Assembly (NCBI RefSeq): GCF_003018255.1
Contig: NZ_CP027440.1
Source: Escherichia coli
GTDB taxonomy: Bacteria > Pseudomonadota > Gammaproteobacteria > Enterobacterales > Enterobacteriaceae
Length of the DNA: 64,000 nt
Reading direction: 5' to 3' (one strand)
Shown: piece by piece, positions 3,478 to 8,055 of the stretch
Numbering within the stretch: the first letter of the stretch is position 1
How the letters are laid out: every line of letters begins with the position of its first letter
The notes under the pieces: model-generated
The model's database searches: none
What the model saw: the letters and a program-made list of their open reading frames with translations, nothing else
What the model was told of the DNA's origin: nothing
Position numbers and translations under genes: made by a program

Positions 3478-5523
<2,046 letters not shown>

Positions 5524-5536
5524 ATCGTTATTTGAA

Positions 5537-5562
5537 GCGCCGGATGCAACGCATCCGGCACG
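5537..5562. terminator. Palindromic hairpin between convergent fadH and higA
   Basis: gcgccggatgcaacgcatccggcac inverted repeat. Confidence 0.5.
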
Positions 5563-5567
5563 TCGCG

Positions 5568-5984
5568 TTAATCAATAAACAAGGCGGGAGAAATGCCGAA
5601 TCGCGTTGCCAATTTTTTAGCGTGTTCCAGCGTTAATTTCCTCTTCCCGCTCAAAACGCGTGACACCATCGATTTACTGCCAATTTCCGGAAGATCGGAA
5701 AGGGTTAAACCATATTGATCCATAAGGGTACGAATCACAGCTATACCGCCAGGCATGGCTTGCGCCATGGCATTAAATTCAGCAAATTCGGGCGCTGATT
5801 CTTCCCACGCGGTTATTTTGGCACACACCAGATCCAGCAAGGGGTTTTCAGGATCGTTGAGCAGCAGATGATCTACCAGTTCCAGCGCCTGGGTGTATTG
5901 TTCCTCGTTCTGAATACCCGCCAGAAAAGGTGCCACAGCAGTTAACTTTTCTCCTGCTTGCAAGATGTCGGCAATCGCAATCAT
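5568..5984 (-). CDS. higA: Antitoxin HigA (Xre-family HTH)
   Basis: 138-aa ORF; C-terminal HTH region (LTLEHAKKLATRFGISPALF); start overlaps stop of upstream higB remnant (ATGA). Confidence 0.9.
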   Translation of the reverse strand: MIAIADILQAGEKLTAVAPFLAGIQNEEQYTQALELVDHLLLNDPENPLLDLVCAKITAWEESAPEFAEFNAMAQAMPGGIAVIRTLMDQYGLTLSDLPEIGSKSMVSRVLSGKRKLTLEHAKKLATRFGISPALFID

Positions 5985-6060
5985 TTTTTCCCCTTAGTAC
6001 GATGAACGGCGGTAAAGAAATCGTATTCTTTATGCGTCATAACTTCACGTATGTAGCATA
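5981..6060 (-). pseudogene. higB: higB toxin remnant (C-terminal ~26 codons only)
   Basis: Minus-strand translation gives ...CYIREVMTHKEYDFFTAVHRTKGKK* matching the HigB C-terminus as I recall it; upstream sequence diverges into REP-containing DNA. Confidence 0.5.
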
Positions 6061-6152
6061 AACGTAGAAAAACGCTAAACAAGAGAATGTAGAGGATGGT
6101 GACAGGGATTTTTTGTTTTATGGAAGCGCGATTCCAGAACTGGGCAGACATT

Positions 6153-6240
6153 GCCGGATGCGACGCTTGCCGCGTCTTATCCGACCTGGGGGTAATGTGC
6201 TGAACGTATGCCAGATAAGGCGTTTACGCCTTATCTGGCA
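6153..6240. repeat. REP/BIME palindromic repeats
   Basis: gccggatgcgacgcttgccgcgtcttatccgacctgg and gccagataaggcgtttacgccttatctggca. Confidence 0.8.
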
Positions 6241-6254
6241 GGTAGCTGCCAATC

Positions 6255-7391
6255 TTACCGACGACGCCCCAGCTTCACTGCTTTCAGCACCACAAATTTA
6301 TTATTCGTGGCGATGGTGGTGCAGTTGCCGAAAATCTTCTTCAGTTTATGGAAGTAATCCAGGTGACGGTTGGCAACGATATACAGCTCGCCGTTGATTT
6401 TCAGACAGCGGCGGGCGTGGTGGAACATCTCCCAGGCGACGTTATCGGTCAGCGCATGTTGCTGATGAAACGGCGGGTTGCAGAGCACAGCATTAAAACG
6501 GAAAGGCTCCACGCCGGAGAGCGCGTTGTTGATCATAAACTCGCAGCGATCCAACGCCTCTGGCATGTTGGTTTCAACGTTTAAACGGCTGGAAGCAACC
6601 GCCATCGGCGATTCATCGACAAACACCACTTTCGCCTGCGGGTTTTTATCAAGCAGCGTCAGACCAATAACGCCATTACCACAACCGAGATCGACAATCT
6701 CACCTTCGAGATTCTCTGGCAGATGCTGCATAAAGAAGCGCGCGCCAATATCCAGCCCGGTGCGGGAGAAGACATTCGCATGGTTGTGGATAGTCCAGTC
6801 AGTACCTTCCAGTTTCCAGCTAACGGTCTGCGGCGCATCGGCCAACGGCGGCTCGTTGAAAGTACAGTTAATTAAGCGTGCCTTCTTCCATGCCAGCGTG
6901 GTGGTGGTCGGGCCGAGCACTTTTTCGAACAGTTCCAGCGTGGAAGTGTGGATGTCACGGGCTTTGGCACCGGCAATAATACGTGTATCCGGCGTGACCA
7001 CTTTGCGCAGCGCACGCAGTTGTTGTTCCAGCAACGCCAGTGTTTTCGGTACTTTGATCAGTACCACGCCCGGCTGTTGCGGGTAGTCGGCGGTGCTGTC
7101 GAGAAACTTCACGCTCGACTCATCAATCCCGTTGAGGCGTAAATTCTCGCGCGTCGCCAGTTCGCTGATGTATGAGTCGCCAATGCTGTATGGCTTATGT
7201 TCCGCCAGCGCACAACTTAACGCACCAAAGGCATCATTCAGGATCAACACCGGGCCGCGGATTTCTGTGTCGTCCAACTGTTGCAGCAAATATTCATCCG
7301 CCGCTTCCCACGCCTGTAGTGGGTTAACGTCATCCGTCGCCGGAAAACGTTGTAGTGTCAGTGAACGGAAACCGTTGTCTAAGTGGCTCAT
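6255..7391 (-). CDS. rlmG: 23S rRNA (guanine1835-N2)-methyltransferase
   Basis: 378-aa ORF; SAM-methyltransferase motif region ([11 protein letters not shown]). Confidence 0.9.
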
Positions 7392-7475
7392 CGGCCCTCC
7401 TGAATGATAAAATTTCGACGTTGCCCCTGAAAAGGGTGCGTGAGTATACCCTTTTTCTCTTTTTCGTGGGCGGTT

Positions 7476-7979
7476 ATGAGCAATCTTACTTATCTTCAGG
7501 GTTATCCCGAGCAGCTACTTTCCCAGGTGCGAACGCTGATTAACGAACAGCGTCTGGGCGATGTGCTGGCAAAACGCTATCCGGGAACACACGACTACGC
7601 CACCGATAAAGCCCTCTGGCAATATACTCAGGATCTTAAAAATCAGTTTCTGCGCAATGCCCCGCCGATCACTAAAGTGATGTATGACAATAAGATCCAT
7701 GTGCTGAAAAACGCGCTCGGGTTACATACCGCTGTTTCGCGTGTGCAGGGCGGCAAGCTGAAAGCAAAGGCGGAGATCCGCGTCGCTACCGTGTTTCGCA
7801 ACGCGCCGGAACCGTTTTTGCGCATGATCGTGGTGCACGAGTTGGCGCACCTGAAGGAGAAAGAGCATAACAAAGCGTTCTATCAATTGTGCTGCCATAT
7901 GGAGCCGCAGTACCACCAGCTTGAGTTCGACACCCGGCTGTGGCTAACGCAGTTGTCGCTTGGGCAGGACAAAATCTGA
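7476..7979 (+). CDS. ygjP: YgjP-family metal-dependent hydrolase (HExxH)
   Basis: 167 aa from ATG at 7476 (ORF track begins at 7440); HELAHL motif. Confidence 0.8.
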
Positions 7980-8055
7980 AAATGATGTCAGGCGTTATCT
8001 TTTCTTCCTATAGCGCCTAAAATCGACCTCCCCCCTTTCGTTAAGGATAACGACC

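Follow-up and report, generated by a model that had tools for sequence, protein, structure and literature searches.

A chromosomal higBA toxin-antitoxin locus of Escherichia coli probably inactivated by one ancestral 325-bp deletion

We found that the fadH-rlmG interval in a 64-kb stretch of Escherichia coli DNA (the window) most probably holds a nonfunctional copy of higBA (ygjNM), the chromosomal type II toxin-antitoxin module, inactivated by one ancestral deletion of 325 bp, and we put the probability of this reading at about 85%. The deletion removed 79 of the 104 higB codons together with 88 bp that contained the HigA-repressed promoter and operators, leaving a 25-codon HigB tail and an intact higA with its ribosome-binding site and no recognizable promoter. 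With no toxin, no autoregulated promoter, and no HigA operator, the module can no longer act as a toxin-antitoxin system, and any expression of higA would depend on rlmG read-through across two REP hairpins and would probably be low. The allele arose once, is present now in ~27% of complete E. coli genomes, and has been reshuffled onto many backgrounds by recombination.

In the K-12 module, HigB is a ribosome-dependent mRNA interferase; its antitoxin HigA, which also acts as the repressor of the promoter, is degraded by Lon when cells are stressed (PMC2814082). For this pair, growth inhibition by the toxin and its neutralization by the antitoxin have been shown experimentally (PMC2814082).

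Results

Layout of the locus and the higB remnant

The gene order in the window is fadH, higA, a higB-like tail, two REP palindromes, rlmG, and ygjP, with the positions listed in Table 1. When positions 5530 to 6300 were used as a 771-bp query, they were 100% identical to E. coli strain 104, in which PGAP places a 78-nt HigB pseudogene ("incomplete; missing N-terminus") between higA and rlmG. The HigA encoded in the window is identical to K-12 HigA (WP_000560266.1; 100% by tblastn) and has an HTH_3 domain at residues 84 to 135, toward its C terminus (Pfam, E = 2.5e-7). The spacing between higA and rlmG is 270 nt in the window versus 594 nt in K-12, which, as the original prediction had argued, is too little room for a higB gene of ~104 codons.

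Table 1. Features of the fadH-rlmG region in the window
Feature	Position	Strand	Evidence or remark
fadH	3505-5523	+	convergent with higA
REP palindrome between fadH and higA	5534..5564	.	inverted/direct repeats; comparison with empty-site allele
higA, 138-aa antitoxin gene, intact	5568..5984	-	ORF list, annotation of strain 104, Pfam, tblastn
higB remnant, codons 80-104 + stop of a 104-codon gene	5981..6058	-	alignment, phmmer, tblastn, PGAP
56-aa chance fusion ORF, not a gene	5981..6151	-	ORF list
Deletion junction GTATGTAGC/ATAAACGT, one ambiguous A	6058..6059	.	alignment with K-12
Residual intergenic DNA	6059..6151	-	collinear with L002 2355-2447; immediately 5' of the higBA promoter in K-12
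BIME, two REP palindromes (about 6152-6186 and 6209-6240)	6152..6240	.	inverted repeats, hairpins
rlmG, upstream same-strand neighbor of higA	6255..7391	-	ORF list, annotation

A tblastn search of the 64-kb window with K-12 HigB returned a sole match, residues 80 to 104 at positions 6058..5984 on the minus strand, with 25/25 residues identical (E = 6e-14); no second HigB-like sequence was found in the 64-kb window by this search. In a phmmer search against the PDB, the 56-aa ORF that contains this segment matched residues 77 to 104 of the HigB of structure 5IFG (E = 1.7e-12). The TGA of the remnant overlaps the higA start codon (ATGA, shared by the ORFs at 5981-6151 and 5568-5984), as had been predicted, and the Shine-Dalgarno sequence of higA (AAGGGG) and its ATG are kept within the remnant. 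The prediction that the last ~26 HigB codons remain was borne out for the remnant itself by tblastn (25/25) and phmmer; the count was slightly off, the remnant comprising 25 codons plus the stop (78 nt).

The remnant is short relative to a reference protein that is not: K-12 HigB is 104 aa long and has been crystallized (5IFG; further structures are 6KML/6KMQ and 5YCL). We used the Pfam HigB_toxin model (PF09907) for HigB in place of NCBIfam; no NCBIfam model matched K-12 HigB itself above threshold, and the 56-aa ORF has no NCBIfam match. The Pfam model covers residues 20 to 92 of K-12 HigB (model positions 2 to 72 of 74, E = 4e-22) and only model positions 58 to 72 (15/74) in the 56-aa ORF of the window (E = 0.0078). 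Neither the ORF list nor Pfam revealed a full-length HigB ORF within positions 5985 to 6254, where such an ORF had been sought as evidence against the original prediction. Thus, of the parts of a functional higBA module, the window has the downstream-adjacent HTH antitoxin gene (higA, with HTH_3 and the ATGA overlap) and lacks a full-length toxin ORF with a HigB_toxin/RelE-like BECR-fold domain; the 25-codon HigB tail cannot form the RelE-like (BECR) fold.

PGAP marks the same 78-nt higB pseudogene in 19 other genomes. When the first 10 distinct loci of this kind (short forms) were translated, further decay of the remnant was rare, with two amino acid changes (VM to GL) in one locus (L010) and a frameshift in another (L011). 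L011 (NZ_CP151059.1, about 752-757) lacks one A of the A6 run that separates the Shine-Dalgarno sequence of higA from its start codon, so that the remnant is frameshifted and the spacing from the Shine-Dalgarno sequence to the ATG of higA is 1 nt shorter.

The 56-aa ORF consists of 31 new codons from intergenic DNA followed by the 25 HigB codons, with the start codon at the border of a REP element. It starts with ATG and includes a hydrophobic stretch, IPVTILYILLFSVFL, so that it could in principle be a new functional small protein with a hydrophobic N terminus and a HigB tail. We consider this extremely improbable, given that no promoter-like site precedes the ORF and its start codon abuts a REP hairpin, that its family match is restricted to the HigB tail (none in NCBIfam, the last 15 HigB_toxin model positions in Pfam), and that its N-terminal part differs nonsynonymously among short-form strains (SVFL versus SVVQ) and its tail is frameshifted in L011.

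One contiguous deletion separates the window from K-12

We aligned the window with the corresponding loci of K-12, which has an intact higB (locus L002), and of strain PMV-1, which has no higBA (the empty-site locus, L003). Relative to K-12, the window has one contiguous gap of 325 bp, and the flanks are otherwise collinear with nothing inserted. The missing block corresponds to L002 2030-2354 and comprises higB codons 1 to 79 (237 nt) and the 88 nt that precede the gene. The junction falls between window positions 6058 and 6059, with a single A assignable to either side. Thus, the K-12 alignment that the original prediction had proposed as a check confirmed the remnant and traced its cause to a single 325-bp deletion. 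There is no HigB similarity upstream of 6058, where the original prediction had noted that the frame loses its resemblance to the toxin, because 6058/6059 is the deletion junction, and the next 92 nt, up to the first REP element, are ordinary K-12 intergenic sequence. We found no direct repeats able to drive recurrent deletion; the microhomology at the junction is just 1 bp (A), and for this reason we treat the deletion as a single event. That the apparent deletion is an assembly or sequencing artifact can be dismissed, since 1,491 independently finished genomes share this junction exactly.

Two linked sites 6 to 10 nt from the junction, at window positions 6064 and 6068, vary among strains. 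Most short forms read ACGTTGAACAACGC, a near-palindrome, at these sites, the window, L001, L012, and most long forms (loci without the deletion) read ACGTAGAAAAACGC, and the long form L016 has the intermediate ACGTTAAACAACGC. With a 56-nt junction probe at ≥99% identity, the variant of the window was found in 91 of the 1,491 junction-positive genomes. This pattern would need either recombination very near the junction or templated quasi-palindrome mutation.

REP elements are native to the interval

As the original prediction had noted, REP palindromes lie before rlmG. One has perfect 15-nt arms at 6209-6223 and 6226-6240, a REP-like core lies at 6152-6174, and both elements fold as strong hairpins, with a minimum free energy of -82 kcal/mol for the 288-nt interval (z = -3.0). 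These are GC-rich imperfect palindromes of ~35 nt with a GCCGGATG-type core that are extragenic and form stable hairpins, as expected of REP/BIME DNA. An Rfam search of positions 5000 to 8000 gave naRNA4 matches that were all below threshold. The three naRNA4 (RF02564) matches, at 6102-6246, scored 28 to 31 bits versus a gathering score of 59.5 and coincide with the REP pair; their source is similarity to REP sequence rather than a separate sRNA gene.

The original prediction, in which the toxin gene had decayed or been replaced by REP/BIME DNA, was correct in that higA is an orphan antitoxin with a dead toxin, with which PGAP agrees; its account of the loss did not survive the alignment. REP palindromes do stand between the higB remnant and rlmG, as gradual erosion or overwriting by inserted REP/BIME DNA would have it. 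However, the identical pair (6152-6240) stands at the same place in K-12 with its intact higB and in PMV-1, which has no higBA, so that the elements are preexisting intergenic DNA, proximal to rlmG and present whatever the state of higB, rather than a replacement. In addition, the missing DNA is one contiguous 325-bp block without insertion, the 92 nt from the junction to the REP are ordinary K-12 sequence, and the 78 nt that survive encode the same residues as in K-12 (100% identity), which rules out gradual erosion. We therefore give the erosion or replacement account almost no weight relative to a single deletion.

The higBA cassette as a whole is flanked by two REP elements, and their cores, at 5539-5559 and 6153-6173, form direct repeats that are 81% identical. 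The empty-site allele of PMV-1 (L003 2986-3104) joins the left flank of the first REP to the main body of the second (TTGAAG-T-GCCGGATGCGACGCTTGCC). To judge from these repeats, recombination between the two REPs may have deleted the cassette to give the empty site or, in the opposite direction, the cassette may have been inserted into a REP.

The deletion includes the mapped promoter region

The sole strong sigma-70-like site in the K-12 interval, TTGCCA-16-TATCAT (10/12, with an extended TG), overlaps a palindrome with a 12-bp stem at L002 2298-2331, within the deleted 2030-2354. A single higBA promoter, repressed by HigA and showing Lon-dependent induction, has been mapped upstream of higB (Christensen-Dalsgaard et al., PMC2814082), and HigA and HigBA bind palindromes in the higBA promoter (2025 review, PMC11980606). 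On these positions, the deletion took the only mapped higBA promoter along with the HigA operator palindromes, and an autoregulated promoter with palindromic HigA operators is absent from the window. Neither the loss of the promoter and operators (88 bp, TTGCCA-16-TATCAT) nor the 27% frequency of the allele had been recognized in the original prediction.

A standard scan of the window gave no promoter-like site on the minus strand between rlmG and higA. Likewise, no sigma-70-like site scoring ≥8/12 was found on the minus strand of this interval in the window or in a typical short form (L007); shuffled rlmG-higA sequence yields 1.8 ± 1.5 sites at ≥8/12. As judged by consensus scans, higA is intact but apparently promoterless. 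We also considered a promoter made by the junction itself, in which TATGCT has TTGTTT 16 nt upstream on the minus strand, and make no claim for it; this candidate scores 7/12 by eye, and the scan at ≥8/12 is empty.

We found no intrinsic terminator between rlmG and higA, where there are two REP hairpins instead, and a promoter-like site is present upstream of rlmG at 7433-7404 on the minus strand. Read-through from rlmG would thus be the only evident, and the only plausible, route to higA mRNA. BIMEs act as stabilizers of mRNA ends and as attenuators, so read-through across the REP hairpins would probably be weak. The primer for the primer extension in PMC2814082 bears the name of ygjN (higB); it presumably anneals in higB, and, if so, it would be blind to a start site just upstream of higA. 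We found no relevant literature on the expression of higA in Nissle, CFT073, or UTI89. We infer that expression of higA is low or absent. On balance, we favor, with moderate confidence, the view that higA is a leftover rather than a gene kept for a new role, and that its transcription, if any, is probably weak.

Frequency and origin of the deletion allele

Among 5,426 complete E. coli genomes, 4,362 have a higA-containing interval of any kind at the fadH-rlmG site, 2,848 contain the deleted 325-bp segment (the intact type), 1,491 (27%) contain the deletion junction (the short form), and about 1,040 have an empty site at which the rlmG/REP end alone matches. Short forms were counted with a 56-nt probe centered on the junction, either half of which is by itself too short for the E-value limit, so that a genome is counted only if it has the junction, and the count agrees with that obtained by subtraction (4,362 - 2,848). 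Carriers of the short form include Nissle 1917, clone D i2, NC101, O104:H4, O111:H8, and O103:H2.

The junction is identical in 20/20 short-form sequences (19 fetched genomes and the window), and this identity, together with the lack of a repeat that could drive recurrence, points to one ancestral deletion event. The flanks of the deletion are mosaic, with short forms matching long forms on both sides (L006 with L015, L007-L009 with L018, and L010 with L016). The members of these pairs differ by the deletion and by the two sites 6 to 10 nt to its right, at which the window, L001, and L012 carry the long-form state. This mosaic makes it evident that recombination has transferred the deletion, or the sequence flanking it, from one background to another.

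Conservation of higA in short forms

The full 138-aa HigA ORF is present in 18/18 distinct short-form loci, mostly identical to the K-12 protein, and each of the 19 short-form genomes sampled has an intact higA, as does the window, in 11 nucleotide haplotypes. By the Nei-Gojobori method, pN/pS for higA is 0.07 to 0.14 among short-form haplotypes versus 0.10 among long-form haplotypes. The variants seen only in short forms, as defined against just eight long-form genomes, comprise 11 synonymous and 10 nonsynonymous changes, compared with a neutral expectation of about 1:3 (unweighted random mutation in higA would be 24% synonymous, 72% nonsynonymous, and 4% nonsense). This is the pattern expected of continued purifying selection, and higA may still act. 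However, recombination with intact alleles confounds any inference of selection on short-form higA. The low pN/pS is not decisive because short-form haplotypes interleave with long-form alleles that guard a live toxin, nor is the test of short-form variants, both because of the eight genomes against which they were called private and because the remnant changes of the most divergent short forms look imported.

The most divergent short forms are L012 (OkiPb01685) and L025 (strain 135), which share the HigA changes I4L, A5S, D6N, and K13Q, clustered at the N terminus within codons 4 to 13. In OkiPb01685, the one of the two whose remnant was checked, the three nucleotide changes in the remnant are all synonymous, as if imported from an intact allele, and the shared changes look like those of a divergent allele rather than a product of decay. 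fadH is annotated as frameshifted in OkiPb01685.

Has the orphan antitoxin been kept for a new role?

The conservation of higA could also mean that orphan HigA has been kept by selection after loss of the toxin, with low constitutive expression from the rlmG transcript, either as an anti-addiction factor against plasmid- or phage-encoded HigB-family toxins or as an HTH transcription factor that acts elsewhere. In favor of this, higA is intact in all 20 short forms across 11 haplotypes with a pN/pS that is not relaxed relative to long forms, the remnant still contains its ribosome-binding site and ATG, no intrinsic terminator lies on the way from rlmG, 1,056 plasmid records, including 77 from Escherichia, carry HigB-family genes, and reviews have proposed such roles for orphan antitoxins generally (PMC7354431, PMC10790755). 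We nevertheless regard it as unlikely, if well short of negligible: no promoter-like site serves higA and its native operators are deleted, the short- and long-form haplotypes interleave (L006 matches L015 in both flanks, for example) so that low pN/pS can be inherited or refreshed, higA is dispensable in that about 1,040 genomes lack it, and no near-cognate invading toxin is evident among the plasmid and phage homologs of HigB.

This last point comes from the identities of those homologs. On plasmids, 1,045 of the 1,056 are <60% identical to K-12 HigB, nine are 60 to 80% identical, and two are ≥99% identical; apart from these two records, the maximum is 71%. The six phage records with HigB homologs show 34 to 41% identity. 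Thus, leaving aside the two records at ≥99%, a closely related toxin on mobile elements of the same host was not found, and an anti-addiction role is not supported on these comparisons, because neither a near-cognate mobile toxin nor a promoter for higA was found.

Several features of the plasmid records themselves are worth recording. Klebsiella plasmids account for 647 of the 1,056 records with HigB_toxin-family homologs, mostly at 35 to 60% identity, and closer homologs (about 71%) are found on small Erwinia pyrifoliae plasmids. PLSDB record NZ_CP141089.1, one of the two at ≥99%, is 4.9 Mb long and carries a higB identical to that of K-12; evidently a misfiled chromosome, it would make chromosomal genes seem commoner on plasmids than they are.

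A more specific version, in which HigA became a downstream passenger on the rlmG transcript after the deletion and was kept by purifying selection as a stand-alone immunity factor or a rewired HTH regulator, would explain the perfect 138-codon ORF and the pN/pS of ~0.1 in 20/20 short forms; we hold it to be a doubtful reading.

Discussion

The K-12 higBA module (ygjN-ygjM) and the locus in the window share the fadH-rlmG site, the HigA protein, the last 25 HigB codons, and the 4-nt overlap between the genes. In contrast, K-12 has higB codons 1 to 79 and the 88-bp promoter/operator region, which are missing in the window. The locus has the makeup of an orphan antitoxin, with an intact antitoxin ORF beside a fragment of its cognate toxin gene and an intact pair at the orthologous site in related genomes (2,848 genomes have the deleted segment). 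That the toxin was lost and the antitoxin kept is as expected from toxin-antitoxin biology, because loss of toxin and promoter in one step is harmless, whereas loss of the antitoxin first is lethal.

The allele is ordinary and already known, as a PGAP pseudogene and from PMC7232551. Its architecture, an intact higA with a 78-nt partial higB, is that annotated by PGAP in 19/19 sampled genomes, with no structural difference. An orphan higA at the fadH-rlmG site has been described in CFT073 and NRG857c (Bustamante et al., 2020, PMC7232551), and from that description and from the B2 relatives Nissle 1917, clone D i2, and NC101, we infer that their allele is the same as that of the window. Large surveys have found orphan antitoxins to be abundant in phylogroup B2 (PMC10790755). 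Beyond this, our analysis locates the breakpoints exactly, shows that the promoter and operators went with the toxin gene, traces the allele to a single origin, gives allele frequencies, and refutes replacement by REP DNA.

Toxin-antitoxin remnants described in general surveys (of Klebsiella pneumoniae, in PMC7354431, and of E. coli, PMC10790755) likewise consist of an antitoxin ORF beside a toxin fragment, with intact pairs in relatives. Compared with these, the lesion in the window is one defined event that includes the promoter and is found in more than one-quarter of finished E. coli genomes. The locus also resembles the Erwinia chrysanthemi ccdA gene in its relation to the CcdB toxin of the F plasmid, in that each is a chromosomal antitoxin that could in principle neutralize a toxin of the same family on a mobile element. 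Unlike the ccdA case, however, higA here has no near-cognate mobile HigB (the homologs are mostly <60% identical) and no promoter that we found.

Strains with the short form, among them the probiotic Nissle 1917 and several pathogen lineages, lack a chromosomal HigB toxin and should not be scored as higBA positive in surveys of toxin-antitoxin systems or persistence. The finding matters little beyond correct annotation. The locus provides a clean natural example of type II decay that is toxin first and includes the promoter. Since intact, toxin-deleted, and empty alleles cocirculate in one species, the locus could be used to test for selection on orphan antitoxins.

A second route to an orphan antitoxin was seen in L014 (positions 751-1064; NZ_AP022161.1, strain WP5-S18-ESBL-08), a long form in which higB is independently frameshifted and higA is intact. 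L014 is a case separate from the 325-bp deletion and shows that toxin-first loss has recurred.
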